Part shown: positions 15,688 to 34,425 of the stretch, one piece after another
How positions within the stretch are numbered: the first letter of the stretch is position 1
Layout: each line of letters starts with the position of its first letter
Source of the DNA: a virus
Taxonomy: Duplodnaviria > Heunggongvirae > Uroviricota > Caudoviricetes
IMG/VR virus record: IMGVR_UViG_3300037280_000066
Span: 118,061-182,060 of that record
Length of the DNA: 64,000 nucleotides
Reading direction: 5' to 3' (one strand)
Notes under the pieces: generated by a model
Databases searched by the model: none
Seen by the model: only the letters and a program-made list of their open reading frames with translations
Told to the model about the DNA's origin: nothing
Translations under genes and position numbers: made by a program

Positions 15688-15729
15688 GCAAATCCCCCTT
15701 TTCCTCGTACTGCCTTGCATTTGTTACAA

Positions 15730-15801
15730 CATGCCATGAAGGAATCGAACCTTCTCTAATAGTTTTGGAGACTATTTTGCTAACCATTACAATAATGACA
15801 T
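15730..15801 (-). tRNA. tRNA-Trp (anticodon CCA)
   Basis: Cloverleaf folded by hand: T-arm GAAGG/AATCGAA/CCTTC (plus-strand view), anticodon loop CTCCAAA, D-loop with GG, U8 present, acceptor with one G-U. Confidence 0.7.
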
Positions 15802-15920
15802 ATATTTGTCTGGATATAGGGGAATCCAACCCCTATGTAAATTCAATACACTCTAGAATGCATTTGCCTTAAGACACAGAATTCAGTGACCAGAGTATAA
15901 TACTCTTCGCAGTATCCTTA

Positions 15921-15993
15921 TTGCGTAGGTGGGAATCGAACCCACTATTTTTAGGTTATGAGCCTAACGAGATAGCCATTTCTCTACATCGCA
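15921..15993 (-). tRNA. tRNA-Met/fMet/Ile2 (anticodon CAT), acceptor stem with 2 mismatches
   Basis: T-arm GTGGG/AATCGAA/CCCAC, anticodon arm TTAGG-TTATGAG-CCTAA, D-arm GAGA..TCTC; positions 5:68 and 6:67 unpaired. Confidence 0.55.
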
Positions 15994-15995
15994 AA

Positions 15996-16068
15996 TAGCA
16001 CTAGCAGGACTCGAACCTGCAACTTACACCTTATGAGGATGCCACTCTACCACTTGAGTTATAATGCT
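15996..16068 (-). tRNA. tRNA-Met/fMet/Ile2 (anticodon CAT)
   Basis: T-arm GCAGG/ACTCGAA/CCTGC, anticodon loop CTCATAA, D-arm ACTC..GAGT, full acceptor pairing with one G-U. Confidence 0.7.
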
Positions 16069-16090
16069 AAACGTATTACTAAGTTATTAA

Positions 16091-16162
16091 TAGTTGATAT
16101 TGGGATTGAACCAATGACCTACTGCGTGTAAAGCAGTTGCTCTCCCACTGAGCTAATCAACC
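16091..16162 (-). tRNA. tRNA-Val (anticodon TAC)
   Basis: T-arm ATTGG/GATTGAA/CCAAT, anticodon arm ACTGC-GTGTAAA-GCAGT, D-arm GCTC..GAGC. Confidence 0.75.
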
Positions 16163-16166
16163 AAAG

Positions 16167-16238
16167 GGTGAATAATGAAAATCGAATTCATGCTAAAGGG
16201 GTCACAGTCCTGTGTGCTACCACTACACCATACTCACC
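16167..16238 (-). tRNA. tRNA-His-like (anticodon GTG, encoded G-1), weak anticodon stem
   Basis: T-arm ATGAA/AATCGAA/TTCAT; acceptor GTGAGTA/TATTCAC with an extra 5' G opposite discriminator C (His hallmark); loop CTGTGAC; anticodon stem only 3 bp; possibly degenerate. Confidence 0.4.
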
Positions 16239-16259
16239 ATATATTATTTTGTTGCTAAG

Positions 16260-16333
16260 TACTCATAGGAAGATTCGAACTTCCCACCTACTGCGTATCA
16301 GACAGTTGCTCTAACCAAATGAGCTATATGAGC
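16260..16333 (-). tRNA. tRNA-Ile (anticodon GAT)
   Basis: T-arm GGAAG/ATTCGAA/CTTCC, anticodon loop CTGATAC, D-arm GCTC..GAGC. Confidence 0.75.
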
Positions 16334-16453
16334 ATATGAATTTGTGGCAGTAGGGCTTAACAGTCTCATTGGATAAACTATTCCTACTAGTATTGTGTGA
16401 ATATCCTCACCTATAATTACCTCTCTATTAAGCAGAGCTTGTACACCACAAAA

Positions 16454-16525
16454 TCTGAATGGCAGGACTCGAACCTGCAACAACGTGAACCCAAATCACG
16501 CAATCTACCATTGAAATACATCCAG
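16454..16525 (-). tRNA. tRNA-Pro (anticodon TGG)
   Basis: T-arm GCAGG/ACTCGAA/CCTGC, anticodon arm CGTGA-ACCCAAA-TCACG (G37), weak 2-bp D-stem. Confidence 0.6.
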
Positions 16526-16535
16526 TTATTACTAA

Positions 16536-16608
16536 TCTAAAGGGTGGGATTTGAACCCACAACCTCTTGCATCCAAAGCAAGCCATCCCCCAATTGAATT
16601 ACCTCTAG
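16536..16608 (-). tRNA. tRNA with anticodon TGG (second Pro-type copy, A37)
   Basis: T-arm GTGGG/ATTTGAA/CCCAC, anticodon arm CTTGC-ATCCAAA-GCAAG, weak D-stem. Confidence 0.55.
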
Positions 16609-16619
16609 TTTTATTGCTA

Positions 16620-16692
16620 TACTCCTACTAGGAATCGAACCTAGATTAACGAATTAGAAGTCCGTTGTACTGTTCCGTTGTACGATAAGAGC
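16620..16692 (-). tRNA. tRNA-Arg (anticodon TCT)
   Basis: T-arm CTAGG/AATCGAA/CCTAG, anticodon loop CTTCTAA, D-stem GTAC/GTAC. Confidence 0.7.
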
Positions 16693-16714
16693 AAATTTTG
16701 TCTTATATCTTCAA

Positions 16715-16786
16715 TGGACTTAGCAAGAATCGAACTTGCATCTTTGCATTCGTAGTGCGAAATTCTGTCCATTGAAATATAAGTCC
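16715..16786 (-). tRNA. tRNA-Arg (anticodon ACG)
   Basis: T-arm GCAAG/AATCGAA/CTTGC, perfect acceptor GGACTTA/TAAGTCC, loop CTACGAA, one C:A mismatch in anticodon stem. Confidence 0.6.
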
Positions 16787-16867
16787 TAGTGAAGAATTTT
16801 TTTGTACTGATACATCTTCATCATCAGCAGAGAACTTAATCTCAAGACAGAGAATTTAATCTCTAAA

Positions 16868-16940
16868 CTGGCAAGGCAGGACTCGAACCTGCAACCTTCT
16901 AGTTAACAGCTAGTTGCTCTACCTGTTGAGCTACAAACCA
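16868..16940 (-). tRNA. tRNA-Asn (anticodon GTT), acceptor stem with 2 U:U mismatches
   Basis: T-arm GCAGG/ACTCGAA/CCTGC, anticodon arm TCTAG-TTAACAG-CTAGT, D-arm GCTC..GAGC. Confidence 0.55.
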
Positions 16941-16957
16941 ATATATTTATTACCAAG

Positions 16958-17031
16958 TGAACCTAGACAGACTTGAACTGTCAACCTACGAGTTAAAAGC
17001 TCGTTGCTCTAGCCAGTTGAGCTATAAGTTC
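16958..17031 (-). tRNA. tRNA-Lys (anticodon TTT)
   Basis: T-arm GACAG/ACTTGAA/CTGTC, anticodon arm ACGAG-TTAAAAG-CTCGT, D-arm GCTC..GAGC. Confidence 0.75.
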
Positions 17032-17115
17032 ATATTTTAAATTAGGCTGAACTCCATGGTTTTTAATTTAACAGTTTACCATCTTTTTGACCACTGACCT
17101 AATTCTTTTACTACA

Positions 17116-17188
17116 TCCTCCATATTGGAATCGAACCAATGACCACTCGCATATAAGGCGAGAACTCTAACCACTGAGTTAATGGAGA
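17116..17188 (-). tRNA. tRNA-Ile (anticodon TAT, AUA-reading)
   Basis: T-arm ATTGG/AATCGAA/CCAAT, anticodon arm CTCGC-ATATAAG-GCGAG, D-arm ACTC..GAGT. Confidence 0.65.
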
Positions 17189-17195
17189 CTAGGAA

Positions 17196-17279
17196 CGGTA
17201 GATATGTGACTCGAACACATGAGGCTTTTACACCCACTTGTTTAGCAAACAAGCTCCTTACCAACTAGAATAATCTACC
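17196..17279 (-). tRNA. tRNA-Ser (anticodon GCT), long variable arm
   Basis: T-arm ATGTG/ACTCGAA/CACAT, perfect acceptor GGTAGAT/ATCTACC, anticodon arm CTTGT-TTGCTAA-ACAAG, 3-bp D-stem, 84 nt. Confidence 0.7.
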
Positions 17280-17283
17280 ATGA

Positions 17284-17371
17284 CGGAAGATATAGGATTC
17301 GAACCCATGATACCCTTTCAGATATGCTAGTTTTCAAGACTAGTGCAATAATCCATCTCTGCCAATCTTCC
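17284..17371 (-). tRNA. tRNA-Ser (anticodon TGA), long variable arm
   Basis: T-arm with G-U, perfect acceptor GGAAGAT/ATCTTCC, anticodon arm CTAGT-CTTGAAA-ACTAG, variable-arm stem ATATC/GGTAT, 88 nt. Confidence 0.7.
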
Positions 17372-17507
17372 ATTTTTATTACTGTTTTGTTCTTTGGTGT
17401 GCTATAATGCCAAAGTCATTATGATACGTCTATTGTTCACTGTACATTATGATTTTACGTTTACCAAACTTCACTCCTTAGATGATGGACACCTTCAATC
17501 CTACATT

Positions 17508-17555
17508 CCAAAAAACAAAAACTAAGTAGACCTACATTGAAGTAAGTCTACTTAA
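17508..17555 (-). terminator. Rho-independent terminator after HU gene (hairpin also followed by a T-run on the plus strand)
   Basis: 9-bp stem TAAGTAGAC/GTCTACTTA at 17524-17555; minus transcript continues into a U-run (plus-strand A-run 17509-17523). Confidence 0.6.
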
Positions 17556-17579
17556 TCTTTTTTATGTACTGGTTTGCGA

Positions 17580-17861
17580 TTAAGCGTTTACTTCTTCTTT
17601 TACACTCTTTGAGAATGTGAATACTGGTTTAACTCCTGCTGGTACTGCTACTGGCTCGCCAGTTCTTGGATTTCTAGCTGTTCTAGCATTTGTTGCTCTT
17701 ACTTTGAATGTTCCAAAGCCTGAAAGTGTTACCTTTTCTCCATTAGCAAGTGCTGTTTGGATGCTTGAGATTACTGCTTCTAATGCAATTTTGGAATCTT
17801 TCTTTGTAAATCCTGTAAGGCTTGCGATTGATGCTACTAAATTTTCTTTGTTTGTTTTCAT
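17580..17861 (-). CDS. HU/IHF-family histone-like DNA-binding protein
   Basis: 93 aa; GFGTFKVRATNARTARNPRTGEPV arm motif; GGGAGA RBS. Confidence 0.85.
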   Translation of the reverse strand: MKTNKENLVASIASLTGFTKKDSKIALEAVISSIQTALANGEKVTLSGFGTFKVRATNARTARNPRTGEPVAVPAGVKPVFTFSKSVKEEVNA

Positions 17862-18082
17862 TTTTAATTTCTCCCTTTTATTCGTTTATTTTTTATTTAT
17901 AAAGTGTTCAACCACCTTATATACTTATCTTACCACACTCTTTTTGATTTGTCAAGCTTTTTCAATACTTTTTTATTTTGTATTTTTATTTCGTTTGTTT
18001 CCTTCAAATTATAGCTACCACGCTTAATGGTAGCCATGTTTAGAAAGGAGGTTTATATGAAACAAAAATTTTATTGACTCTT

Positions 18083-18262
18083 TTATTCTGATACTTCATT
18101 CTTTAAACTGATAGTAATTTTTACATTCTCACCATCAAATTTCTCTAACAATTCTTTCAAAGGTTTTACTCCAATTTCATCAAATTCCATTGTCATACCA
18201 TCAACATTCAGAATCCCTGATAAAACTTTGCTGTGGCTCTCTGTTATAGGTGCTTTAGCCAT
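18083..18262 (-). CDS. small hypothetical protein (59 aa)
   Basis: Not in ORF track; ATG 18260-18262 behind AAAGGAGG; MAKAPITESHSKVL... Confidence 0.35.
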   Translation of the reverse strand: MAKAPITESHSKVLSGILNVDGMTMEFDEIGVKPLKELLEKFDGENVKITISLKNEVSE

Positions 18263-18277
18263 TATGTATTCCTCCTT

Positions 18278-18447
18278 TTATTCTTTAATTACCTTTACCT
18301 TGCTTTTACTGAACGCATTCATCAAAGCAACATATTGTTCTGGTTTACTTGCCCATAGGTAATCTCCTATAGTGTTTTTCCATTCATCCTGCTTAACTTC
18401 TTCCACTTTAGGTGCTACTTTCTTGTTGTTACTTACAAGCTGTGCCA
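18278..18447 (-). CDS. small hypothetical protein (56 aa)
   Basis: Track ORF trimmed to ATG 18447 (MAQLVSNNKK) behind AAAGGAG; the longer track version would overlap tRNA-Gln. Confidence 0.45.
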
Positions 18448-18489
18448 TAATCAATAATCTCCTTTTATCCATTTTATTTTTATTGCAAA

Positions 18490-18563
18490 CTACCAAGGTA
18501 GGATTCGAACCCACAAGCATCTAGAGTCAAAGTCTAGCGTTCCACCATTTGAACTACTTGGTA
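18490..18563 (-). tRNA. tRNA-Gln (anticodon TTG)
   Basis: T-arm GTAGG/ATTCGAA/CCCAC (G-U), perfect acceptor, anticodon arm CTAGA-GTCAAAG-TCTAG, D-arm GTTC..GAAC. Confidence 0.7.
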
Positions 18564-18757
18564 TTATACTCTTAGGAAGTGCCTAATTAAGCCGAGGTAA
18601 GCAAAGGCACTATTTTACATTCAACGGAGAATCACTCTTTAACCTATCTTGGAAACTTGTATGACGAGTTCTTTTTGTTTGTGAATCCTCTTGTCATACT
18701 CTAAAACCAACCTGAGATTTTAATTTTAACGCTGAATAACCTAAAAAACTTTCTGAG

Positions 18758-18831
18758 TGGACAGGATTGGAATTGAACCAACGAACACTTAGGTTTTCAG
18801 CCTAATGCTCTACCGACTGAGCTACCTGTCC
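18758..18831 (-). tRNA. tRNA-Phe (anticodon GAA)
   Basis: T-arm ATTGG/AATTGAA/CCAAC, perfect acceptor GGACAGG/CCTGTCC, anticodon arm TTAGG-TTTTCAG-CCTAA, D-arm GCTC..GAGC. Confidence 0.7.
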
Positions 18832-18844
18832 ATATTTATTACTA

Positions 18845-18916
18845 TAGCGAATACCAGAATCGAACTGGTGTTTCAGGGATGAAAACCCTGCTTCCTGACC
18901 ACTAAAAGAATTCGCC
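18845..18916 (-). tRNA. tRNA-Glu (anticodon TTC)
   Basis: T-arm ACCAG/AATCGAA/CTGGT, anticodon arm CAGGG-ATGAAAA-CCCTG, D-stem with G-U pairs. Confidence 0.65.
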
Positions 18917-18934
18917 ATTTATTACTTTGTTACA

Positions 18935-19007
<73 letters not shown>

Positions 19008-19014
19008 ATTGGTA

Positions 19015-19087
19015 CGACTCTGGTGGGAAGTTGAACCCACATCGCTTGCGTGACAGGCAAGAATAATAGCCTTTATACCACAGAGCC
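19015..19087 (-). tRNA. tRNA-Asp (anticodon GTC), 8-nt T-loop
   Basis: T-stem GTGGG/CCCAC around loop AAGTTGAA, anticodon arm CTTGC-GTGACAG-GCAAG, weak D-stem. Confidence 0.55.
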
Positions 19088-19101
19088 ATATTGTATTACT
19101 A

Positions 19102-19175
19102 AGCGAATAGTGGGATTCGAACCCACAACACCCTGCTTGGAAGGCAGGAACTCTAGCCAATTGAGTTATATTCGC
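19102..19175 (-). tRNA. tRNA-Gly (anticodon TCC)
   Basis: T-arm GTGGG/ATTCGAA/CCCAC, perfect acceptor GCGAATA/TATTCGC, anticodon arm CCTGC-TTGGAAG-GCAGG, D-arm ACTC..GAGT. Confidence 0.75.
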
Positions 19176-19298
19176 ATTTTGTATGGTGGAATTAATCTCA
19201 ATGATACCACTCCACCACACTGCAAGCCCACAAGTCATGCTTTATCAGCTTTTTCTGTTGTCTGTCAACGGTAAGCCCATACGTCTTACATTATATTG

Positions 19299-19814
19299 TC
19301 AAGGTTTTTTTCCATTTATCAAATCATATATCGTTAACCCATTCGTCCACTCAAAGTGTGATGAATCTACAAAAGATTTAAAATGTCCACCCCATGTCAA
19401 TCCTATTAATTTTTCTCCTATTGCTCCTACACTCTGGATAAGTCTTTCATCATACTTATCATAACCCTTCATGTTGATACAGAAATCAAATGCTAAACCC
19501 CAATTATGTTTACTATACCCTGCTCTAGTCATTGTTACTACTTGAGATTGGTCAATGATGTTTCCATCTTCATCCCTACCTCTTTGATATAGCTCTTTCT
19601 GTTCTTCACTACTTCTGTAACCTGACACAATTTGTAAAGTAATACCTTGTCTTCTGCATTCATTTACTAGCTGAATACACATCTTCCTTACTTTAGGATT
19701 CAATGAATTGATGATATCCCAATCCTGCTTTGTTAAAAAGTCAGGAATCTGCATCTGTACAATAGCAGGTGGTGGTGTTGCATAACCAAATATCTTTTTT
19801 ATGTATCTTAGCAT
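19299..19814 (-). CDS. peptidase M15 (VanY/L-Ala-D-Glu peptidase-like) cell-wall hydrolase
   Basis: 171 aa; SGYRS...ELY and HNWGLAFDF...SHFEW zinc-peptidase motifs; AGAGGTGA RBS. Confidence 0.7.
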   Translation of the reverse strand: MLRYIKKIFGYATPPPAIVQMQIPDFLTKQDWDIINSLNPKVRKMCIQLVNECRRQGITLQIVSGYRSSEEQKELYQRGRDEDGNIIDQSQVVTMTRAGYSKHNWGLAFDFCINMKGYDKYDERLIQSVGAIGEKLIGLTWGGHFKSFVDSSHFEWTNGLTIYDLINGKKP

Positions 19815-19844
19815 ATGTAGTCACCTCTGTTGCATAAACTTATG

Positions 19845-20027
19845 TTAGAATTTGTACCCACAATGGTTTACAAGATAATCAATTGCTGACAACTTCTTTA
19901 AACCAGTTGCTCCTGTCTCTGCTTTACCTTTAACCTTTGGTTTCTTGATAAACTTGCCAAGTGCTTCAAATCCATCATTATGTATTGTTGCTAAAGCATC
20001 TTTTTCAGTCCATTTTCTCATATACAA
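19845..20027 (-). CDS. hypothetical protein (60 aa)
   Basis: Track ORF; AAGGAGG RBS. Confidence 0.45.
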   Translation of the reverse strand: MYMRKWTEKDALATIHNDGFEALGKFIKKPKVKGKAETGATGLKKLSAIDYLVNHCGYKF

Positions 20028-20064
20028 TTCCTCCTTTTATTCATGTTACATTTTTTGTTGCTAG

Positions 20065-20138
20065 TACGAGTAAGAGGACTTGAACCTCCAAATTCTTGCT
20101 TCTAAGGCAAGTTCCTATGCCAATTCGGATATACTCGC
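20065..20138 (-). tRNA. class-I tRNA with Leu anticodon TAG (atypical)
   Basis: T-arm AGAGG/ACTTGAA/CCTCC, acceptor with one G-U, anticodon arm CTTGC-TTCTAAG-GCAAG, Leu-like 3-bp D-stem with GAATTGGCATA loop, but only a 5-nt variable region; A73. Confidence 0.55.
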
Positions 20139-20144
20139 ATATGA

Positions 20145-20218
20145 TGGGTCAAGAGGGATTCGAACCCTCACTGAACGGATTTTAAGTCCGTTTCCTCTGC
20201 CAGTTGGGATACTGACCC
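20145..20218 (-). tRNA. class-I tRNA with Leu anticodon TAA (atypical)
   Basis: T-arm GAGGG/ATTCGAA/CCCTC, acceptor GGGTCAG/TTGACCC, anticodon arm ACGGA-TTTTAAG-TCCGT, 5-nt variable region, poor D-stem; A73. Confidence 0.5.
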
Positions 20219-20237
20219 AATTCCTTACTACTCTCTT

Positions 20238-20266
20238 ATCTTACCACATACTCTTTAATTTGTCAA
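20238..20266 (-). promoter_or_regulatory. sigma-A-type promoter (TTGACA-17-TGgTAAGAT) driving the tRNA array
   Basis: Minus-strand read: TTGACAAATTAAAGAGTATGTGGTAAGAT. Confidence 0.6.
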
Positions 20267-20634
20267 CACATTTCTTTCATTTCTTTTTCTAATTGTTTTC
20301 GCATTTTCTTTTTTCCACATCTTCTATTCTTTTTACTAGCTTTACCTGTCTTTCCATGGTTAAAGTCTGAATAAAAATACTGATACTTCATTATAAATGC
20401 TCTTTGCTTTCGTTTTGCCATTGCAATCACCTCTTATTAGAAGACAATCACCTCTTTCTATGGTTGTTATTAAAAAGCATCTGTCTCTCCAGAATGTCAC
20501 CTTTATAAAACTTAGTCAAGTAATGGACAGTAAAGGTCTTCCCCTCGTCAACGCTTGATTCGCCCCTATCTCTTAATAGCACCTACATCGAGATAAAATT
20601 CTTCCTACCATTTCTGGCGAGTGCTTAAAATGAG

Positions 20635-20706
20635 TGGAGCTATAGGGACTCGAACCCTAAACCCTCTGCTTGCAAAGCAGATGCTCTCCCTTTGAGCTAT
20701 AGCCCC
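20635..20706 (-). tRNA. tRNA-Ala (anticodon TGC)
   Basis: T-arm TAGGG/ACTCGAA/CCCTA, anticodon arm TCTGC-TTGCAAA-GCAGA, D-arm GCTC..GAGC. Confidence 0.7.
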
Positions 20707-20906
20707 ATTTGTCGAAATTGTAAGGACTCGAACCTCCACCAATAAAATTACTTAGTATACTTTCATTTTATCAATCCGTAGCTTTCTCATTGAATTACTC
20801 ATATCTTGTTTATCTAGAAAACCTGATATTTTCACGCTACACCAATTCCATATGTAAAACTTTTTTGTTAGGCTTTAGTTCACTAAGAATTCCTAAAGCT
20901 CATTCA

Positions 20907-20978
20907 AGGTCAATATCTGAATCGAACAGATGATAACTTGGGTTGCAACCAAGAGCCTTACCACTTGGCTAATTGACC
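20907..20978 (-). tRNA. tRNA-Cys (anticodon GCA)
   Basis: T-arm ATCTG/AATCGAA/CAGAT, perfect acceptor GGTCAAT/ATTGACC, anticodon arm CTTGG-GTTGCAA-CCAAG. Confidence 0.75.
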
Positions 20979-21016
20979 ATTTGACTATTGTAATAGTCAG
21001 AACCTAACTCTCTAAA

Positions 21017-21100
21017 TGGGCAAGGTGTGATTCGAACACACAATGTTTCTTATGTCACAGTTTTACAGACTGCTTGCTTCACCAATTTGCATACCTACCC
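21017..21100 (-). tRNA. tRNA-Tyr (anticodon GTA), long variable region
   Basis: T-arm GTGTG/ATTCGAA/CACAC, acceptor with two G-U, anticodon loop CTGTAAA, 3-bp D-stem TGC/GCA, 84 nt; variable-arm stem poor. Confidence 0.55.
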
Positions 21101-21224: not shown

Positions 21225-22427
21225 TTAATCTAAAAGGTCTGATAAAGCGGCAGTATCACTACGTTCTACCTTATCTAACTTAACAAATCCAAATAACTTA
21301 TTTCCTGAAAGTCTATCAATAATTGCATTCAAACCACTATTGCTTGCAAAAATATGTTCATCTGTTTGCTTGAAATCTCCATTGAAGTAAATTATAGAAC
21401 CTTCTCCAACTCTTCCTATTAATAACTGAATATGCTCTTTTGTAAAGTTTTCAGCTTCTGAACAGTATATGATTGAGTTCTTTATGTCCCTTCCTCTTAT
21501 GAATCCAAAATGCTGTAACTCTATCTTCCTAGCATCTATCATCATCTTTAATCCCATTTCACCACCTAAATGGTCACTCATAGGACTTGCAAAAGGCATT
21601 AATTTCTCGTTGGCAGTTCCTGGCAAAAATCCGATATCCTTACTATTTCTAACCTGTACAGGGTTTCTTACCCATATTAATTTTTGATATTTCTCAGACT
21701 CTACTAAATTTAAAGCATGAGCTAACATACAAAAGTCTTTACCTGTTCCAAATTTACCTGTACATACTTTGATTGTTGTTTCTTTATCTTGCAACATATC
21801 AAATAATAATTCTTGATGTGGATTGATTGGTTTAATCTTTCCTACTGCCTTGCTAGATACTGGTGAGTACTTTATCATTACTAAACCATTATCTTCTGTC
21901 CATTTATATTTATCAATAATTTCTTGTGTGTCTGCATCTTTTATAAGTAGATATTGGTTGTGAACCATATCATAATCAACTTTTTCAATATTCTCATAGA
22001 ACCACGCTTGCTCTATATGATTTAACTCAACCTCTATGTAGCCTGTGTATTCTGTCTTCTTTTCCTTGGTATACTTCTCAGCATCAACACCTAAGATTTT
22101 AGCTTTAATTCTTACATTTAAATCATTACTAAATAACTTGGCTTGATTTTCTACTGCTGTAAGTATTATCTTATTGTCTCTTAAATCTGGATTCCATCCT
22201 GTTGGTACATTCTCATAAATGTCTTTTACAACAAACTCTACATTGGGGGAATTTTCAATTTTATGCGAAGCTCTTCTAGCTTTCCATCCAATTTCGTCAC
22301 TCTTCTTTAAACCATCAAGTTCTTCAATAACAGCTATAGGAAGAATGAAACTATAATCCAAATCTAAAACCTCTGGACTTTCTAATAATACATTTGTGTC
22401 AATAACACATTTTCCTAATTTCCCCAT
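21225..22427 (-). CDS. PIN-domain/PhoH-like ATPase (YlaK/PhoH2-type)
   Basis: N-terminal VIDTNVLL PIN signature; Walker A CTGKFGTGKDF; start set to the third ATG (MGKLGK), 9 nt after AAAGGG. Confidence 0.7.
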   Translation of the reverse strand: MGKLGKCVIDTNVLLESPEVLDLDYSFILPIAVIEELDGLKKSDEIGWKARRASHKIENSPNVEFVVKDIYENVPTGWNPDLRDNKIILTAVENQAKLFSNDLNVRIKAKILGVDAEKYTKEKKTEYTGYIEVELNHIEQAWFYENIEKVDYDMVHNQYLLIKDADTQEIIDKYKWTEDNGLVMIKYSPVSSKAVGKIKPINPHQELLFDMLQDKETTIKVCTGKFGTGKDFCMLAHALNLVESEKYQKLIWVRNPVQVRNSKDIGFLPGTANEKLMPFASPMSDHLGGEMGLKMMIDARKIELQHFGFIRGRDIKNSIIYCSEAENFTKEHIQLLIGRVGEGSIIYFNGDFKQTDEHIFASNSGLNAIIDRLSGNKLFGFVKLDKVERSDTAALSDLLD

Positions 22428-22464
22428 ATACATCATCCCTTTTCTGTTTATTCTTAAGCTCGAC

Positions 22465-22771: not shown

Positions 22772-23491
22772 CTAACAAGAATAATTTTTTATGTACCTTT
22801 TAAAAAACACACTAGAATCAAACTTATATTCATTAATACATATTTTGTAAATATTTATAAAGTGTTCTTCTAAACTTTCTGTATCTCCTACTGTATAAAT
22901 TACCTTTCTCACTTTAGGTAAATTTAACTTATATTTGTTAGGATGTTTATACACAACACCTTTGCTAAATGGATTATCACGCAATATCTTTTTTATCTGA
23001 TTTCTAGATATTATATCAATAAATTTACTTTCTTCTAATTTATTGATAACTCTCTCAATTTGCATCTCTTGCATTCCACTCAACTTCTCTAAAGACTTAT
23101 ATCTACAATAAAAGATACCCTCTTTATTAGCATATATTTTACTCAAAAACAATAAACAAAATGCTATCTTCCTCTCACCTTTTGTTACTAATTTATTTAT
23201 TGCTCTCATTTCTTCTAAGTATATCTTAACATTAACATCATCAATAAATTTGTAACTTCTATTGTATATAATATGTACAACCTCTATAACTTCCTCAATT
23301 ACTTCATTATATGGTGAGTCAATTTTTTGTGTTGTTAACCAACTCAATATATTATGAATACAACCTTCTTCTGTAGTATTAATATATTTATAATACTTGG
23401 ATAAAAGGGAGATGTTATACCCAAAAGTTAAATTTGGGTATAATCCATCTTTCAACATCTTTACTGCCCTATCCTTCTCACTAAACATCAA
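22772..23491 (-). CDS. hypothetical protein
   Basis: Track ORF 239 aa; overlaps the upstream gene by 11 nt. Confidence 0.5.
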   Translation of the reverse strand: MMFSEKDRAVKMLKDGLYPNLTFGYNISLLSKYYKYINTTEEGCIHNILSWLTTQKIDSPYNEVIEEVIEVVHIIYNRSYKFIDDVNVKIYLEEMRAINKLVTKGERKIAFCLLFLSKIYANKEGIFYCRYKSLEKLSGMQEMQIERVINKLEESKFIDIISRNQIKKILRDNPFSKGVVYKHPNKYKLNLPKVRKVIYTVGDTESLEEHFINIYKICINEYKFDSSVFFKRYIKNYSC

Positions 23492-25985
23492 ACAATTCCT
23501 CCATTCGATAATAATGACCTAAATACTCAGTATCATTCCTATCAAATGTCTCAGCAGGAAACATTATATTCATCTCCCTATTCTTCTCCAAATTCAAGAA
23601 TAAACCTTCCTCAGTTATTACCCAACAAAAGTTCTTAGCCTTACTTGGATACTTAATATAAGATAAATGTACTGCATAATTAGCTAATTCACTTGGGTTT
23701 GGAACAATAGCTTGTACAATAGCCTTATATTTCTCATATACAATATCCCAATTCACATCAGTACTTTGTATCTCTGCTTTACTATAACCCTCAAAAAATG
23801 ACTTGTATTGACTATAATTCTCAGCCATCCTGCTCTGCTTACCTAACTCTACCATCTCTTTATTGAATGCTATAAAAACTTTTTCAACTTCCTTATAAAG
23901 CCCATCATCCCAATCTTGACTTTTATCAATCATATATTCACTAGTGTCAGGACTCTTTCTTTTAAATCTTATACCCTTCTGCCATTTTTCAACATCCCAA
24001 CATAAATGATTAAGATTACAATTTGCCTTGGAAAACATCTTTAACTTGGAATAATAATATCCTGCATACTTCATGAAGTAAGGTAATGGTCTAGCATACT
24101 TAGCAATATGATAAGGTACTAACCATCTCATTCCTGTCTTAGCATAATCTATCTCCTTACCATTTATAACAGAAAGCAAGCAAACATAATCATTAAATCT
24201 TTCCTTAGTCTTTTCATCCTTGGTCTGCTTATTAAGGTAACAAGTGGCAACATTACTTATCTCACCAATCCTAGAATCAAGAGACATAAGCATATAATTG
24301 ATAACACCTTCTTTGTTATATTGAACATCTAACGCTGTTATCTTATCATCTACATCTATTACTATTGGTAGGTCACGCTGAACACCTTTACGCATTATCT
24401 CATTATTAGTAACAAATACAAGGTCACCATCTGTGTCTGCTCCATTTAATCTCTTAGTTGTTATGTCATAACTATTCAACATACAGACATTCTCTAAGTG
24501 ACTCAAGTAATCCCTTATCTGTGGACTAGATGTTTTAGCTAAAATAGTATGCTCAGATGGACATATGTGTGGATTCCTATCAATAAGATATTCTCCATTC
24601 TGCAATCCATAAGCATAAAACTCACCTTCTCCTAAACACCCTACTACTGGAAGTCCCCCTGCTGATTCCATCATCATAATAACATCAGGTATCAATATCT
24701 TGAAACAACCCTTTACCCACAACTTACCCATTTTGAATTCATCCATGTACTTCTTCAATAATGAGAATAGATACTCTTTAACCTTAAAATCTTGCAACAT
24801 TCCACTATGTAAAGTAATGGCTTTCATATATTTATTACTTGGATTGTTACCACCATTCTCCATGCCAAGAAATTTGTAAGTGTAAATAGGGTCACCTGTT
24901 ATTATATTCTCAGCCCACCTTTTACTATATTCTCCAAGTTCTATCATATCCTCTTTTTCAATCTTTAATGTTTGAAGATATTGATAATTTACTCTTGTGT
25001 ATAGAGGTTCTTCCTCAGTTAAGAAATTCCATTTAGCTATTCCTAAACAATGATTATGCTTATAAAATTTTGCTAAGTAGTTTTCCCAATCACTATAAGT
25101 ACCTGTCTTCTTGAAATACTTAACACCTTTATACATTGATTTAGTCCAAATGCATTCTACTTCATCAACACTATGTTCAACTCCCCATATATCCTTAATA
25201 TGAGTAATACCTTTGTTTCTGTAGAATCTTCTAAAATCAACCTCTATAGTTAATCCCTTTACAAAAGGCATTCTACACATAAATACACTTGGGTGTGTTG
25301 TTATACCTATTGCATCTGCCCACTTTTTTGACAATTCTGGTATATGCATTCCACTACCATCAGCAGGTGTTACTGGCACATCTTGATATCCCTCAAATAC
25401 ATTCTTAGTCTTACCATACTTAATCTCACCTGTTACTTTATCAACCCATGATGTATCTTCTTCTCTTACAGACTTAATGTGTTGGTTAGGTATCACTCTT
25501 TCAAAATCATCCACCACTATTATATAAGGAAGCTTTCCCTCAATGAAGAAACATGAGCTAAACATTAACCCTCTATATGCTGTATATTTGCTAATTACAG
25601 TTTTGTCAATCTCCAAGTCCATAGTGATTCTTTCATTTAATTTACCTTCAATCTCTTCATCAATAAATCCAATAATGGCATTTCTACACATTGATGCTGA
25701 CCTTTCAGTAAAAATAAACTTCTTACCATTTATACTAAACCCATCAGTCAATAACTTTCTCATGATATCAGTTTCATTTTGAAATCCCTTACAATCTATA
25801 AATACTATATAAGGATTAAATTCATTATCATAATCAGTAATTAACCTTATCTGCCTGAACATCATATTATCTTGTTGTTTTATGTAAAACATCTTCTCTT
25901 GTTCAAGGTTTAACTTCATTTTGTATTCTTGATTTAATACATCCCTTAACTTGAATTTTCTAATTATATATAACGTAGGAGACAT
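23481..25985 (-). CDS. large protein with NGADTDGD motif: candidate YonO-like single-subunit RNA polymerase (alternatively a primase/polymerase)
   Basis: 834 aa ORF; NGADTDGDLVFV resembles the NADFDGD Mg-binding motif of the multisubunit-RNAP beta-prime double-psi beta-barrel and of SPbeta YonO (about 839 aa); no polymerase-B or SF helicase motifs seen. Confidence 0.4.
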   Translation of the reverse strand: MSPTLYIIRKFKLRDVLNQEYKMKLNLEQEKMFYIKQQDNMMFRQIRLITDYDNEFNPYIVFIDCKGFQNETDIMRKLLTDGFSINGKKFIFTERSASMCRNAIIGFIDEEIEGKLNERITMDLEIDKTVISKYTAYRGLMFSSCFFIEGKLPYIIVVDDFERVIPNQHIKSVREEDTSWVDKVTGEIKYGKTKNVFEGYQDVPVTPADGSGMHIPELSKKWADAIGITTHPSVFMCRMPFVKGLTIEVDFRRFYRNKGITHIKDIWGVEHSVDEVECIWTKSMYKGVKYFKKTGTYSDWENYLAKFYKHNHCLGIAKWNFLTEEEPLYTRVNYQYLQTLKIEKEDMIELGEYSKRWAENIITGDPIYTYKFLGMENGGNNPSNKYMKAITLHSGMLQDFKVKEYLFSLLKKYMDEFKMGKLWVKGCFKILIPDVIMMMESAGGLPVVGCLGEGEFYAYGLQNGEYLIDRNPHICPSEHTILAKTSSPQIRDYLSHLENVCMLNSYDITTKRLNGADTDGDLVFVTNNEIMRKGVQRDLPIVIDVDDKITALDVQYNKEGVINYMLMSLDSRIGEISNVATCYLNKQTKDEKTKERFNDYVCLLSVINGKEIDYAKTGMRWLVPYHIAKYARPLPYFMKYAGYYYSKLKMFSKANCNLNHLCWDVEKWQKGIRFKRKSPDTSEYMIDKSQDWDDGLYKEVEKVFIAFNKEMVELGKQSRMAENYSQYKSFFEGYSKAEIQSTDVNWDIVYEKYKAIVQAIVPNPSELANYAVHLSYIKYPSKAKNFCWVITEEGLFLNLEKNREMNIMFPAETFDRNDTEYLGHYYRMEELFDV

Positions 25986-26368
25986 TAATTATCCTCCTTT
26001 TCACCTTCACAATATTTACTGAAATCTACATCCTCAATCTCAATAATGGCTTTCTTATCTATATTATTAAATATTACTGTTCCTAAATCATGTTTTCCAA
26101 CAAACCAATCATATACACCATTTGTCTTCATTTTTAATAACTCACCTTTACTAGAAAACACAGATACATAGTCTTCACTCTTATTGTTATAAACATATAA
26201 GTTTACATCAACATTACATGATGGTGACTGTTTATATATATTCTCCAAAACCTCTGTAATACTTAATAACTCAATATATGATGTTTTATTACTAAACACA
26301 CAATACTCAAATCTGTTAACTGGTATTACTAATTGCCCCTCAAGCGTATGTATTTTTGAATTTGACAT
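25985..26368 (-). CDS. hypothetical protein
   Basis: 127 aa; AAGGAGGG RBS. Confidence 0.55.
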   Translation of the reverse strand: MSNSKIHTLEGQLVIPVNRFEYCVFSNKTSYIELLSITEVLENIYKQSPSCNVDVNLYVYNNKSEDYVSVFSSKGELLKMKTNGVYDWFVGKHDLGTVIFNNIDKKAIIEIEDVDFSKYCEGEKEDN

Positions 26369-26458
26369 AATGCCTTTCCCTCCTTATATGAAAAAAATTG
26401 CAGAGGTAAAATTACCTCTGCAATCATTATATCATAGTCTACATAAATCTGTCAACAA

Positions 26459-28432
26459 CTATTTTTTCTTTTCTGCAACAACTTTATTTTCATCTTTTAT
26501 CTTTAAACTATCTCTCTTCTTCTTTATCTTTTCATCAATCATATTTTTGTCAAATATATCATACAAAAACTCACTTGGTATTGTGTCTCTTCTATTATAT
26601 AGGAGAGTGCTAGATAGGTGTAAAATTTTCTCAGCCCTAGTACATAACACATATAAAAGCCTACGTTCTTCCCCTGTTTCTCTTGCCCTGTAATGTGGGA
26701 ATAGCCCCCCATTGATACTAATACCAAACACATACTTGAATTCTAATCCTTTTGATTTATGCCCTGTCATTAACTGAACACTATTAATCTTATCATAATT
26801 CTTTCTGTCTTGTTGCTTCTCTTCTTTAGCCATGATAATCTTTTCAATGTCCTCTAGAAATTTCTCAGCATCAACATAATGACTAGCTTGCTCACATAAC
26901 ATCTCTAAATTTTCAACCTTTTCACAACTTCCTTCTTCTCCTGCCACTTCCTTGCTTATGTAAGAATCATAACCTGTCATTTCTCTAATGGTTCTTAGGA
27001 TATCTCCTATATTACATTTACCTAGCATTTGACTAATTTTACGATGTATATTCTCTAAATCTGCAATTCCACTCCTGTATTTATAAGCTATCTTTGTGTC
27101 AAGGTTTTTTATGGAATCAAAGCAATTAGTATTATTAGTATTGGCTATTTGTGCAACCTCTTCTAAGAAAGCTTTTCCTAACCACCTTGGAGGAACACAA
27201 TATATCCTTTCAAATGCACTATCATCTTTTTTCATTCCTAACTTTAAAAATGCTAATATATCTTGTATCTCCTTTGCTTCAAAGAATGACCTTGCTCCAC
27301 CATAAATAACATAAGGTATTCCCATTTCACTAAATACTCTCTCCAAAGAACATGTTTGTGCATTCACTCTATATATGATTGCTATGTCCTTCCATTGCAA
27401 TTTCTTATCTCCTGCCATTAATTCCTGTATCCTAGTTCCAATTTGTTCAGCTTCTTCCATACCATCTAAATATATCTTAAACTCAGGCTCATGCTCATAT
27501 GTACTATGTGCTTCTGCATCTGTATAATACTTATGACTCTTTTCCTCTGACTTCTCCAATAATTTATTACTGATATCCACAATACTCTTGGAACATCTAT
27601 AGTTTGTTTTCATATGTATAATCTTGGCATCTTTAAATATCTTTTCAAAGTTCATAATAAACTTTGGTGAACTTCCTCTAAACGCATATATAGACTGTCT
27701 GAAATCTCCTACCCAAAACATCTGTTCATGACTGTTTAACATCTTCAAGAAATCAATCTGGTTTTCATTTGTATCTTGACCTTCATCAACTAATATGTAT
27801 TTGTACTGATTTCTATACTTCTCAAGTACTCTTGGTTTAGCCTTTAACATCCTTACACAATAATACTGCATATCATCAAAATCTAAATAACCTTGACGTA
27901 TCTTATCTAATTCATACTCCCTGTAAATTTCTCTCATTACTTCCATTGTGAAAGGCTGTTCCTCTACAAATAGCAAATCCTTATCAGTATAATACTTCAT
28001 ATTTGCTTTCTGTATACTGATGAAGTTTAGAATGTTGGGAACATCTACATCTGAATCTTTCGTCAAAATACGCAATGACCTTACAACAATATCACATATA
28101 AACTTCTTCTTCACATAATCTTTCATTATCTTTGCTTTAGAAAAGAATGCATCTTCATTCTTCAATATGTTGTAGCAGACACTATGGAATGTACCAATGT
28201 TTACATCATTCTCTCCAATAGCTTCAAATAACTTCTTAGTCATATTATCTGTTGCTTTTCTAGAAAATGTAATTAGTAAAATATTGTCCTGATTAACTCC
28301 ACTATCTGTTAAATCTTCTGTCCTACCAATCAATAAGGTGGTTTTACCAGAACCTGCACTAGCTAAAACACAAACATTTCCTCTTGATTTGATAGCTTCT
28401 ATTTGTACTTTACTATATTTCTTTAAATCCAC
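26459..28432 (-). CDS. UvrD/PcrA/Rep-family SF1 DNA helicase
   Basis: 657 aa; ASAGSGKT Walker A, LVDEGQDTN, VGDFRQSIYAFRG, TNYRCS, LMTGHKSKGLEFKYVF, LLYVLCTRAEK; GTG start after AGGAG. Confidence 0.85.
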   Translation of the reverse strand: MDLKKYSKVQIEAIKSRGNVCVLASAGSGKTTLLIGRTEDLTDSGVNQDNILLITFSRKATDNMTKKLFEAIGENDVNIGTFHSVCYNILKNEDAFFSKAKIMKDYVKKKFICDIVVRSLRILTKDSDVDVPNILNFISIQKANMKYYTDKDLLFVEEQPFTMEVMREIYREYELDKIRQGYLDFDDMQYYCVRMLKAKPRVLEKYRNQYKYILVDEGQDTNENQIDFLKMLNSHEQMFWVGDFRQSIYAFRGSSPKFIMNFEKIFKDAKIIHMKTNYRCSKSIVDISNKLLEKSEEKSHKYYTDAEAHSTYEHEPEFKIYLDGMEEAEQIGTRIQELMAGDKKLQWKDIAIIYRVNAQTCSLERVFSEMGIPYVIYGGARSFFEAKEIQDILAFLKLGMKKDDSAFERIYCVPPRWLGKAFLEEVAQIANTNNTNCFDSIKNLDTKIAYKYRSGIADLENIHRKISQMLGKCNIGDILRTIREMTGYDSYISKEVAGEEGSCEKVENLEMLCEQASHYVDAEKFLEDIEKIIMAKEEKQQDRKNYDKINSVQLMTGHKSKGLEFKYVFGISINGGLFPHYRARETGEERRLLYVLCTRAEKILHLSSTLLYNRRDTIPSEFLYDIFDKNMIDEKIKKKRDSLKIKDENKVVAEKKK

Positions 28433-28842: not shown

Positions 28843-29892
28843 TTAACGGTATATTGCGAACTGCTCAATTTGGTACATGTACTTATCCCTATCTTTAGTG
28901 TTCAGATTATCTCTGTATTGCTCCAATATCTGCATGTAATATTCCATTATGTAAAGATAGTTTTTGTTATGTAGTAAAGATTGATTGCTACTATATGCTA
29001 TCTTCTCAAATCCACCAATACTGTTAATATAATCTCTATACTTATACTGTTCCTCATTTAAATGCAGATATATATTATGATACACCCACTCTATACGTTC
29101 TAATATAGGTATACGGTATCTATTATTCCCACCTCTAATATATTTGTCACCATGAAATACTGCATCTGTATGTATTATTTTAATCAGATTGTATTTGTGT
29201 TCACCTAACTCTTTTATTGTTAAGTTTATAGTTTCTTTATTGATGCCAAGACTTTCTCCTATTTGTCTTTGCGTTGGATAAGCATAATGTTCCCTATAGT
29301 AATGATAGATAGGTTCTCCTGTCTCTGCATCAGGTGTTGTCCATACTCCAAAAAAAGAATAATTAACCAACATCATTGAATAAACTGCCCACTGTGTACT
29401 GCTTAACATTGGTAAGATATTCTTTAAAAATTCTACAGGCATTGCTATGTAACCATTACCCTCTTTTACTGTTGTGTTGAGATAATTACAGTCTGAATTA
29501 TACAATATACATACATTCAATGGTGTGTTGTTCTTAATGTCATTTACCGTACCATCTTCTGATACAATGCATATTACACCCTTGTTATGTAACAATAATA
29601 GTATATCTTTTACTTTTGTTGCCCTGATTCCAGTGAATTCAGTTATCATATTGATTGTTGTGGTTGCATAATAAGCATTATTGCTACTGCTCATAAGCCA
29701 GAATAACACATACCACCCATCTACAGTATATAAATCTCTAATAAAATTCTTATTTATACTGTCATATTTGATTTTCAAGAACTTTTTGTAATCTATCCCC
29801 TTATTATCCATCTCTTTATCCCTGTAAATGTAATTAGGTTCTTTCTTACCATATAAATCCATGATATCCTCCACACTTCCGATTTTGTTCAC
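28843..29892 (-). CDS. HTH-containing protein, paralog of 59836-60864 (candidate replication initiator or regulator)
   Basis: 349 aa; GTG start behind AGGAGGG; aligns over its full length (about one-third identity by eye) with the 342-aa protein encoded in opposite orientation at 59836; HTH-like YAYPTQRQIGESLGINKETINLTIKEL. Confidence 0.7.
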   Translation of the reverse strand: MNKIGSVEDIMDLYGKKEPNYIYRDKEMDNKGIDYKKFLKIKYDSINKNFIRDLYTVDGWYVLFWLMSSSNNAYYATTTINMITEFTGIRATKVKDILLLLHNKGVICIVSEDGTVNDIKNNTPLNVCILYNSDCNYLNTTVKEGNGYIAMPVEFLKNILPMLSSTQWAVYSMMLVNYSFFGVWTTPDAETGEPIYHYYREHYAYPTQRQIGESLGINKETINLTIKELGEHKYNLIKIIHTDAVFHGDKYIRGGNNRYRIPILERIEWVYHNIYLHLNEEQYKYRDYINSIGGFEKIAYSSNQSLLHNKNYLYIMEYYMQILEQYRDNLNTKDRDKYMYQIEQFAIYR

Positions 29893-31365: not shown

Positions 31366-32037
31366 ATGAAAACTGGATACAGTGGTATGACTAAATCAGA
31401 AACTAGAGAGTGGAGAAATAACCTTACATATAAAGAACAATTACAGTTTGATATGGACAACATAGATACAGACTCAGAGCCATTACCTCAACACCACAGA
31501 CTGATATGTTTAACAGGGGCAGGTATTAGTAAGGAATCTGGAATTAATACTTTTGAAGAATTCCCTGAGTTGAGAGATAAACTCCATAGACATTATGCTT
31601 ATACTCATAAGGAAGATTATGAGAAAACTATTCAAGAATTCATGAAGATGATAGAAGGAAAAGAACCAAACTCTGCTCACTATGCTATGGCTCAATCTCC
31701 TTTTCAGCAAGTACCAATCATTACCCAAAATGTTGATGGACTCCATCAATTGGCAGGGAGTGAAAATGTTATAGAACTACATGGTAGACTGCCTGATACC
31801 ATAGTCCTTTATGGAGACTCAGCCCCCATGTATCAAGTTGCTATTGATTGTGTTAAAGACCTTAAGTATAATGATTCATACTTTGTTATTGTGGGAACTT
31901 CATTTACAACAACCATTGCTTCTGACTTACTGAAAATTGCTAAACAGAAAAAAGCTAAAGTATTTGTGATTAATGATAACGCAGGTGAGAGAGTACCAAA
32001 AATATTAAGTAACATTAGGCATGAATTGGGATGGTAG
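31366..32037 (+). CDS. SIR2-like (sirtuin-fold) NAD-binding protein, minimal form without Zn module
   Basis: 223 aa; LTGAGISKESGINTF, ITQNVDGLH and VIELHG motifs; no CxxC..CxxC insertion between the last two. Confidence 0.7.
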   Translation: MKTGYSGMTKSETREWRNNLTYKEQLQFDMDNIDTDSEPLPQHHRLICLTGAGISKESGINTFEEFPELRDKLHRHYAYTHKEDYEKTIQEFMKMIEGKEPNSAHYAMAQSPFQQVPIITQNVDGLHQLAGSENVIELHGRLPDTIVLYGDSAPMYQVAIDCVKDLKYNDSYFVIVGTSFTTTIASDLLKIAKQKKAKVFVINDNAGERVPKILSNIRHELGW

Positions 32038-33773: not shown

Positions 33774-34307
33774 TTACCAACAACACCTTTGCAAGTTGGC
33801 ACGTTTGGCACGTTCACGAATTGCGTTATAAGAATAATGATTTTCCCATACACTGGAATTTAATCCATAATCAATAATTACATAATTTCCCTTTTTATTA
33901 AGTCCCCAACTTCTAGCACATTTTATGTCACCCTCTAATAAATCATAGTTGGTTTTCATATCCTGTAAAAAATCGGTAAAATATCTTTCAATTTCCTTTT
34001 TTGTGAGATTTGTTTCATTATCAACATTGAATGCAACATAATTTTTTATTGCGTTGATACCTTTGACCTTTTCGCAATGTTCACATATAACATAAGTGTA
34101 ACATGATGATATTTCAATTACTGGGTTCAAATATTTGCTTTCACCTGATAACGTGTATTCGGTTTGGTTTTGGTCATAACCTTTATTGTTAAACGCTACT
34201 TTACAAACTAAACCAGATTTTAAAAGATATACTTTTCTAGATGTTCCCTTTCCTATCAATAACCCTTCTTTGATTTCATCAACGATATTATCCAAATTAT
34301 AACCCAT
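33774..34307 (-). CDS. small protein-kinase-like protein
   Basis: Start at the second ATG (MGYNLDN) behind AAAGGAG; glycine-rich loop IGKGTSRKVY plus VCKV lysine; YVIIDYG DFG-like motif. Confidence 0.5.
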   Translation of the reverse strand: MGYNLDNIVDEIKEGLLIGKGTSRKVYLLKSGLVCKVAFNNKGYDQNQTEYTLSGESKYLNPVIEISSCYTYVICEHCEKVKGINAIKNYVAFNVDNETNLTKKEIERYFTDFLQDMKTNYDLLEGDIKCARSWGLNKKGNYVIIDYGLNSSVWENHYSYNAIRERAKRANLQRCCW

Positions 34308-34362
34308 TGTTTTATTCTCCTTTGTATGTTGCACCTAGCAACGTTTATTATTGTTTAACTTG

Positions 34363-34425
34363 TTACCCTCTATATATCGACAAACTTTTTAAATACCTTA
34401 ATACTTTTTTTAAAAATTATTCACT
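34363..34425 (-). promoter_or_regulatory. upstream element copy 1 (ATATATCGACAAACTT...AATACTTTTTT...) for the kinase-like gene
   Basis: About 60-nt motif repeated at 34935-35000 upstream of the methyltransferase gene; no TTGACA/TATAAT on the minus strand. Confidence 0.45.

Follow-up and report, generated by a model that had tools for sequence, protein, structure and literature searches.

What kind of enzyme does a large tailed phage encode in a run of genes that leads from a helicase to its packaging and virion proteins, when the loop that stands out in the protein resembles the catalytic loop of cellular RNA polymerases? We addressed this question for the 834-aa protein encoded at 23481-25985 on the minus strand of a 64-kb window, the whole stretch of DNA analysed here, which is part of the ~182-kb phage genome IMGVR_UViG_3300037280_000066. 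A preliminary description of the window had proposed a YonO-type single-subunit RNA polymerase, and this is supported by direct homology to YonO of Bacillus phage SPbeta, by the basic pair of a second barrel, by the fold and by the late-module setting of the gene. Alignments and a structural model indicate that the protein is a single-chain RNA polymerase with two double-psi β-barrels (DPBBs), YonO-like, of a ~182-kb tailed phage with relatives in Clostridia. From sequence and comparative analysis, we consider it probable that this YonO-like polymerase transcribes the late genes downstream of it.

The open reading frame (ORF) is a real gene. It is one uninterrupted minus-strand ORF read from an ATG, the strand having been left open in the preliminary description, and the translation of 24411-24446 (minus) gives the reported motif, NGADTDGDLVFV. 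The start codon is well supported, because the ATG shares 1 nt with the stop codon of an upstream 127-aa ORF (TAATG), a strong ribosome-binding site (AAGGAGGA) lies just 5' of it, and the N-terminus, MSPTLYIIRKF, fits the consensus MFSPxLYxVRKF of a 71-sequence alignment. In a database search, 406 homologues scored E ≤ 1e-3, and the best 120 of these are 41-100% identical to the query, with at least 94% of the query covered in all except four fragments. Among 1.84 billion representatives clustered at 50% identity and searched exhaustively, 1282 relatives were found at E ≤ 1e-3, of which 900 reached ≤ 1e-10 and 229 reached ≤ 1e-30. The family is large, known and widespread, and the window protein adds one member to it; close relatives are already held in Pfam, PHROGs and GenBank records, including an uncharacterised PHROG that matches the protein at E 1.6e-76. 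No match near the DNA level was found among deposited phages.

The two-barrel polymerases share eight invariant residues, which in Qde1 are D709, R738, K743, R962, P964, D1007, D1009 and D1011 (Ruprich-Robert and Thuriaux, PMC2919709). All eight were found in the window polymerase, as D209, R238, K243, R470, P472, D517, D519 and D521, and seven of them are invariant among the 71 homologues. The alignment indicates that the active site is built from two barrels in one chain, a beta-like barrel (D209, R238/K243) and a beta-prime-like barrel (R470/P472 and the Mg-binding D517-x-D519-G-D521). The motif NGADTDGDLVFV (residues 514-525) corresponds to the DxDGD loop with which the beta-prime-like barrel binds metal; D517, D519, G520 and D521 do not vary across the alignment, and the loop aligns with DNDGD of YonO and DLDGD of RDR2. 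The motif RNPHI (24564-24578, minus), in which R470 and P472 are likewise invariant, aligns with RSPH of YonO and equates R470/P472 with Qde1 R962/P964 and Rpb1 R446/P448. In the beta-like barrel, RMPFVK (25257-25274, minus) carries the invariant basic pair R238/K243, which corresponds to Qde1 R738/K743 and Rpb2 K979/K987, and aligns with RLPWVK of YonO and RYGGYK of RDR2. D209, the equivalent of Qde1 D709 and Rpb2 D837, lies in PADGSGM (25347-25367, minus) and is retained by at least 90% of the 71 homologues, with G210 and G212 invariant. The spacings from D209 to R238 (29 residues) and from R238 to K243 (5 residues) equal those of Qde1, and the motifs as a set align with DGIG, RYGGYKG, KNP, DLDGD and DFAKTG of maize RDR2. 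A second DPBB with conserved basic residues, the check that the preliminary description had proposed, is accordingly seen in R238 and K243. The same description took the DxDGD loop to be the only strongly conserved-looking motif; the loop is indeed conserved, but it is not alone, as D209-G210-x-G212, R238-x4-K243-G244, R470-N-P-H473 and K610-x-I-D613-x-x-K616-x-G618 are conserved equally well.

An AlphaFold2 model built on the alignment (predicted local distance difference test, pLDDT, 91.7; predicted template modelling score, pTM, 0.86) is confident and supports a fold with two DPBBs that would form one active site. In a Foldseek search of the PDB, the model matched RDR2 and QDE-1 at E 1e-21 to 1e-23 with a template modelling score of about 0.5, followed more weakly by the P23-45-type phage RNA polymerase (RNAP; 1e-6) and the largest subunits of cellular RNAPs (~1e-2). 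The search returned no primase, helicase or other competing fold, which the preliminary description had named as the result that would speak against a polymerase. A solved structure of YonO was not found in the PDB searches.

Direct comparison connects the protein to YonO. Pairwise BLASTP against SPbeta YonO (839 aa) gave E 2e-31 and 26% identity over residues 53-627, with the catalytic motifs all in register, and a profile of the 71-member family matched YonO at E 1.2e-51. Since this profile spans YonO residues 122-792, the two proteins are homologous over nearly their whole length. A translated search of deposited phage genomes found yonO of SPbeta, phi3T and the Goe phages together with ORF099 of Bacillus phage 0305phi8-36 (E 1e-23 to 1e-27), as well as relatives that match over the full length in the Thomasclavelia phages TR-TP1/TP2 (36% identity) and in a human-gut contig (39%). 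The TR-TP1 protein, gp3, is annotated as an RNA-dependent RNA polymerase (RdRP) and is 36% identical to the window polymerase over the full length. Other homologues in cultured phages are found in Enterocloster phages and Clostridium phage D-1873 in addition to 0305phi8-36; relative to these cultured phages, the window genome is larger (~182 kb) and has a large tRNA set. Earlier work had recorded YonO-like enzymes in firmicute phages, among them two jumbo phages, 0305phi8-36 and Clostridium phage c-st (PMC2919709; PMC7824862). YonO (Forrest et al. 2017, PMC5467207) is likewise one chain of ~835 aa with both barrels, in which the eight invariants align. The two proteins differ in Pfam: PF05183 ('RdRP') matches residues 74-641 of the window polymerase with 56.9 bits against a cutoff of 23.8, whereas YonO falls below the RdRP model and has no Pfam match at all. 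Because YonO itself is unmatched, the 'RdRP' label on its relatives is a family name and no evidence on the template.

Other two-barrel polymerases were compared in the same way. QDE-1 and RDR2 (PF05183) are 13-18% identical to the window polymerase, and their sequence likeness to it is marginal (profile against RDR2, E 0.006; against QDE-1, E 0.9). They are RNA-silencing enzymes that work on RNA templates, QDE-1 also on single-stranded DNA, and the window offers no such context. Sequence similarity to the P23-45/P74-26 gp62/gp64 family, to P23-45 gp96 and to gp66 of the crAss-like phage phi14:2 is undetectable; these polymerases differ in architecture, with fusion to a tape-measure protein or packaging inside virions, and they serve early, not late, genes. 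The multisubunit RNAPs have the DPBB cores and the eight active-site residues in common with the window polymerase, but their separate beta and beta-prime subunits, flap/sandwich-barrel hybrid motif (SBHM) insert, clamp, bridge helix and trigger loop are not seen in it. The window polymerase shows all features of the YonO-like branch that are open to testing, save a zinc-ribbon tail, which is YonO's own feature and not an established mark of the family.

YonO is a strict DNA-dependent and highly processive RNA polymerase whose aspartate triad is essential (PMC5467207). It is induced with the prophage and needed for plaques, and 37 late structural and lysis genes of SPbeta require it; these form one unit with a start site between yonN and yonK, and the YonO promoter and any helper factors remain undefined (PMC5467207). 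In SPbeta, yonO lies upstream of, and co-oriented with, a late module (HU/YonN, YonK, YonJ, YonG, terminase and portal) that is homologous to that of the window. The window module, on the minus strand like the genes from 1 to ~30 kb (the plus strand carries most of those from there to 64 kb), has as its first conserved protein gene a YonJ-like exonuclease (14527-15720; PHROG 284, E 6.9e-74; tblastn with yonJ, E 2.8e-25; a precomputed YonJ_CC match). It continues with a YonG-like protein (12760-13704; tblastn with SPbeta yonG, E 1.5e-15; a precomputed YonG_N match), the terminase large subunit, equivalent to YonF (11020-12753; PHROG 2 and 15503; tblastn with yonF, E 1.3e-20), the portal protein (9367-10998; PHROG 2739, E 4.3e-77; tblastn with the TR-TP1 portal, E 8.7e-46) and further virion-type genes beyond the portal.

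Between the polymerase and this module, also on the minus strand, lie a 238-aa partner gene (22772-23488), a 101-aa ORF, a PhoH-like ATPase with an N-terminal PIN_4 nuclease domain (21225-22436), 11 tRNA genes (18490-21100) with a VanY-type endolysin-like gene embedded among them (19299-19814), a 59-aa YonK-like protein (18083-18262; Pfam YonK at E 9e-5 and 23 bits, below the cutoff of 25, and a precomputed faint match), a 56-aa ORF that also lies between the 11-tRNA stretch and the HU gene, the HU/IHF-type DNA-binding protein (17580-17861; Bac_DNA_binding, E 1.5e-29) and a block of 15 tRNA genes (15729-17372) directly 5' of the YonJ-like gene. The HU-type protein is the positional equivalent of SPbeta YonN, and in SPBc2 the product of yonN carries a DNA-binding annotation. 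By tblastn, the genes of the window are collinear with yonO, yonJ, yonG and yonF of SPbeta, and with the PHROG and Pfam matches included the order follows yonO-yonN-yonK-yonJ-yonG-yonF-yonE. The YonK-like and HU genes are nevertheless swapped relative to SPbeta, and the window, unlike SPbeta, has PhoH, the endolysin-like gene and 26 tRNAs between polymerase and late genes, where SPbeta has a ~1.2-kb non-coding leader. The window is also collinear by tblastn with the polymerase, exonuclease, gp10, terminase, portal, gp15 and gp17 of TR-TP1, in which the order is likewise polymerase, partner, HU-like protein, exonuclease, terminase and portal.

Upstream of the polymerase gene, the minus strand encodes a DnaD/Rep-like helix-turn-helix (HTH) protein (28843-29892), a UvrD-type helicase (26459-28432) and the 127-aa ORF (25985-26368), the first gene of the polymerase operon. 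The latter has no Pfam or PHROG match and is poorly conserved, and no PADLOC defence-system model matches it, the polymerase or the partner. Conservation was assessed in 83 related loci drawn from public assemblies and IMG/VR. Downstream of the polymerase and on its strand, a YonJ-like gene is present in 70/83, a terminase in 50/83 and a portal in 57/83, compared with 3/83 that keep the upstream UvrD helicase; the 127-aa ORF has a homologue in 2/83 (L006 and L009, which are the same contig). With 70/83 against 3/83, the conserved company of the polymerase gene is the downstream late module and not the upstream replication genes. The preliminary description was right in naming PhoH and helicase genes as neighbours and in finding the late operon a fitting one, but the helicase is not a conserved neighbour.

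YonO homology, conserved gene order and a promoter scan together suggest a transcription cascade. Host polymerase would read a putative sigma-A-type promoter 5' of the polymerase operon (26455-26426, minus) that matches the consensus at 12/12 positions (TTGACA-18-TATAAT, with TG), making the polymerase operon early or in mid-infection; yonO is likewise preceded by a sigma-A-type promoter. A 13-bp hairpin with a T-run (26396-26425, minus) begins 1 nt past the -10 box, so placed that the likely start site would fall inside its 5' arm, and it would block read-through from the helicase gene while the polymerase operon re-initiates. The phage enzyme would then make RNA on phage double-stranded DNA and transcribe the co-oriented late module downstream (YonJ exonuclease, YonG, terminase, portal, head and tail genes, ~15.7 kb to 1). 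Late initiation would occur somewhere past a strong intrinsic terminator that follows the HU gene (17560-17517, minus; 19-bp stem and T-run), possibly with the 15-tRNA block as the 5' part of the late transcription unit.

The promoter scan detected near-consensus sigma-A promoters in front of the HU gene (sigma-A-like; 17927-17955, minus) as well as in front of the polymerase operon and of the earlier tRNA blocks, and no sigma-A site with ≤2 mismatches was found between the HU promoter/terminator and YonJ. As there is a weak sigma-A site at best between the HU terminator and YonJ, the segment 17373-17516 (minus), between the terminator and the tRNA/late block, is the natural place for a polymerase-specific start and a candidate region for the late promoter. 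This segment is analogous in position to P_YonO of SPbeta, which published primers place at L002:11006-11198, between yonN and yonK. When 27 non-redundant intervals from polymerase to YonJ were searched for k-mers (k = 9-11, 1 mismatch), the only words recovered reflected coding bias or ribosome-binding sites. The pattern T[GA]TA[GT]GA[AT][AT]G was seen both by eye and by a Gibbs sampler, at 7.7 bits against ≤6.4 in shuffled sequences, a value inflated by six related loci. The word ATGTAGGATTG occurs exactly at 17496-17506 (minus) of the window and at L025:13402-13412 of a distant relative, each time at the head of the late module, and words resembling it are found in L006 (9766-9776, just before YonJ), TR-TP1 and SPbeta; family-wide support is absent after dereplication.

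Could the enzyme copy phage or host RNA, for instance into double-stranded or antisense RNA, and not transcribe DNA? The name of the matched Pfam family, the 'RNA-dependent RNA polymerase' annotation of homologues in GenBank phages and NCBI genomes, and the best structural matches, the eukaryotic RdRPs RDR2 and QDE-1, all point that way. The name, however, derives from a family label and not from an assay; YonO, the one bacterial or phage member to have been characterised, has a strong preference for DNA templates (PMC5467207); and the profile places the window polymerase far closer to YonO (E 1.2e-51) than to RDR2 (0.006) or QDE-1 (0.9). Moreover, a conserved spot at the head of a late module fits a transcriptase, and no partners of the RNA-interference type appeared among ~55 window ORFs scanned, a search that did not exhaust the window. 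We therefore regard an RNA-copying role as very improbable. Somewhat less remote, although still unlikely, is an active DNA-dependent RNA polymerase with another job, such as making replication primers or R-loops, or serving the tRNA array or middle genes only. The polymerase is flanked by the UvrD helicase and by DnaD/Rep-like proteins with HTH_36, its partner weakly matches replication-initiation PHROGs, and 26 tRNA genes lie downstream. Yet the replication-type neighbours are not conserved (UvrD in 3/83) and the late module is (70/83), tRNAs are missing in most relatives, and deletion of yonO in SPbeta silences exactly the late structural and lysis genes (PMC5467207). The preliminary description had further suggested that two upstream elements, at 34363 and 34935, are read by the polymerase. 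These elements are real, duplicated over ~50 nt (TGAATA..AAAAAGTATTAAKGTATTTAWWAAGTTTGYCGATATAT; 34335-34425 and 34913-35000, minus) and not sigma-A-like, but nothing ties them to the polymerase or the late module. They precede two adjacent small minus-strand genes of unassigned function (33774-34334 and 34430-34912, one with a sub-threshold methyltransferase match), their 16-nt core AAGTTTGYCGATATAT has two exact copies in 64 kb and four matches at ≤3 mismatches against 2.5 expected by chance, and nothing similar to it occurs between the polymerase gene and YonJ. With two local copies and none near the late module, we rejected them as polymerase promoters, a role to which we give very little credence.

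Several observations weigh against a YonO-like polymerase that transcribes the late genes. Template preference cannot be read from sequence, and the identity to YonO is just 26%; the nearest solved structures are RNA-dependent polymerases, and QDE-1 is active on DNA as well as on RNA templates (PMC9508822). The C-terminus of YonO is a C4 zinc ribbon followed by a basic tail (792-839), and the window polymerase has no ribbon. Locally, the polymerase gene adjoins replication-type genes for the UvrD helicase and DnaD- or Rep-like proteins. On the promoter side, the best sigma-A-like match in 17373-17516 is TGTACA-17-CATAAT (9/12), so that the host enzyme might transcribe the tRNA block together with the late genes; after dereplication the best Gibbs motif is a ribosome-binding site, at 7.18 against shuffles of up to 7.04, which is not significant.

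The partner gene overlaps the polymerase stop codon by 8 nt, and its 238-aa product has a weak winged-helix/HTH signal (HTH_36 at E 2.9e-5 and 24.2 bits, just below the cutoff of 25) besides weak matches to 'replication initiation protein' PHROGs. Its profile found nothing significant in the PDB (best E 0.38; an IclR-type winged HTH at E 0.74), and 2/22 partner members give a weak HTH_36 match in Pfam. In an iterated hidden Markov model (HMM) search, this family (A) was present in 32 loci, directly after the polymerase gene in all but two. A second family (BC), of 264-312 aa or split into 152 + 111 aa, lies between polymerase and YonJ in 52 related phage loci; two loci, both short or truncated, have neither. 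Homology between A and BC was not found by hhalign (probability below 1%), and they are linked solely via L018 and L019, which match both models. SPbeta has no counterpart of the overlapping 238-aa gene in the 46 kb searched.

A C4 zinc ribbon and basic tail ends 17/17 distinct full-length BC members, 17/18 second halves and 2/27 distinct members of family A (L018 and L019). The window partner itself has no zinc ribbon, and none of 53 distinct related polymerases checked carries such a tail at its C-terminus; the window polymerase ends, unlike YonO, in a 27-residue β-strand. The tail of the L018 partner (L018:12433-13275), CAICGMPIKQTSNRRKYCSSCWKD, is nearly identical to the extreme C-terminus of YonO, residues 792-839 (HMM 22 bits, a short match). 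The sequences suggest domain fusion or fission involving the polymerase and the adjacent protein. As the ribbon is fused to YonO in SPbeta and sits on a neighbour protein elsewhere, polymerase and partner may act together, and the winged-helix-like partner at 22772-23488 is a candidate factor that would aid binding to DNA or to the promoter. A bolder idea, which we put forward tentatively and hold to be rather doubtful, is that most YonO-type polymerases are not truly single-subunit, and that the fast-evolving, DNA-binding-type partner is an accessory or promoter-specificity subunit whose zinc-ribbon part is fused in SPbeta YonO. If true, the partner would be a concrete candidate for the missing initiation factor of this class of polymerase.

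In the lineage from which the eukaryotic RNA-silencing polymerases also arose, YonO is the sole member from a bacterial virus to have been characterised, and it serves as a model for the minimal ancestor of all cellular RNA polymerases. The direct value of the window protein lies mainly in correct annotation, as the public label 'RNA-dependent RNA polymerase' for these phage proteins is probably misleading or wrong. The comparative data add an order from polymerase to late module conserved over ~80 phage contigs, a partner that is almost always present and a ribbon that is fused in SPbeta YonO.

The interval between polymerase and late genes varies in content. In the window, its 26 tRNA genes fall into three blocks (15729-21100, minus) and cover all 20 amino acids. 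One to three same-strand tRNAs between polymerase and YonJ also occur in the relatives L015, L016 and L020, most relatives have none, and SPbeta has a ~1.2-kb unannotated non-coding RNA at the position equivalent to the 15-tRNA block. A related reading is that the polymerase-specific late unit would begin with structured non-coding RNA genes, namely the 15-tRNA block here, tRNAs in three relatives and the ~1.2-kb RNA in SPbeta. A large structured RNA in the gap of the tRNA array (17373-18489) was considered and rejected; Rfam gave tRNAs only, and the gap is filled by the YonK-like, HU and 56-aa ORFs. Some relatives carry genes of anti-defence type between polymerase and late genes, an Acb2/Tad1-hairpin gene at L006:8538-8903 and a Tad2-like gene at L007:16260-16472, and the interval looks like a cargo-gene hotspot. 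Within the late module, a small MUG113/T5orf172-type (GIY-YIG-like) ORF (13728-14039, minus) lies between the YonJ-like and YonG-like genes, and the related loci L007 and L008 have LAGLIDADG or HNH insertions.

The preliminary description had named the structural operon as a possible target of the polymerase. We propose the same for the late module, but the description appears to have taken the plus-strand block beyond 36 kb for that operon; the operon is on the minus strand, directly downstream of the polymerase gene, from ~15.7 kb to 1. The plus-strand block (36-64 kb) was rejected as a structural operon because it has no recognisable virion genes and holds GmrSD_N-like, DnaD_N-like, Band_7 and cytidylyltransferase-like genes together with unknown PHROGs only. 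Among its genes are a GmrSD_N-like gene at 44603-45763 (plus; PADLOC NsnA, E 9e-27), a cytidylyltransferase-like gene at 54236-54829 (plus) and an SPFH/Band 7 gene at 61445-62362 (plus); a Sir2-like gene lies nearer the strand switch at 31366-32037 (plus). Non-coding DNA at 36210-36315 (plus) holds an iteron-like array of five to six direct repeats that recur every 13 nt (TTATGTAAAnnnA), with an outlying copy at 36412-36430, and the array resembles an origin or a binding array for a partition protein or regulator. Repeated palindromic boxes (TGTCATGACA, ATCATGA) at 35063-35122, 35200-35228 and 35306-35337 (plus), 5' of a small ORF that starts at 35372 (plus), look like operators for a repressor-type regulator.

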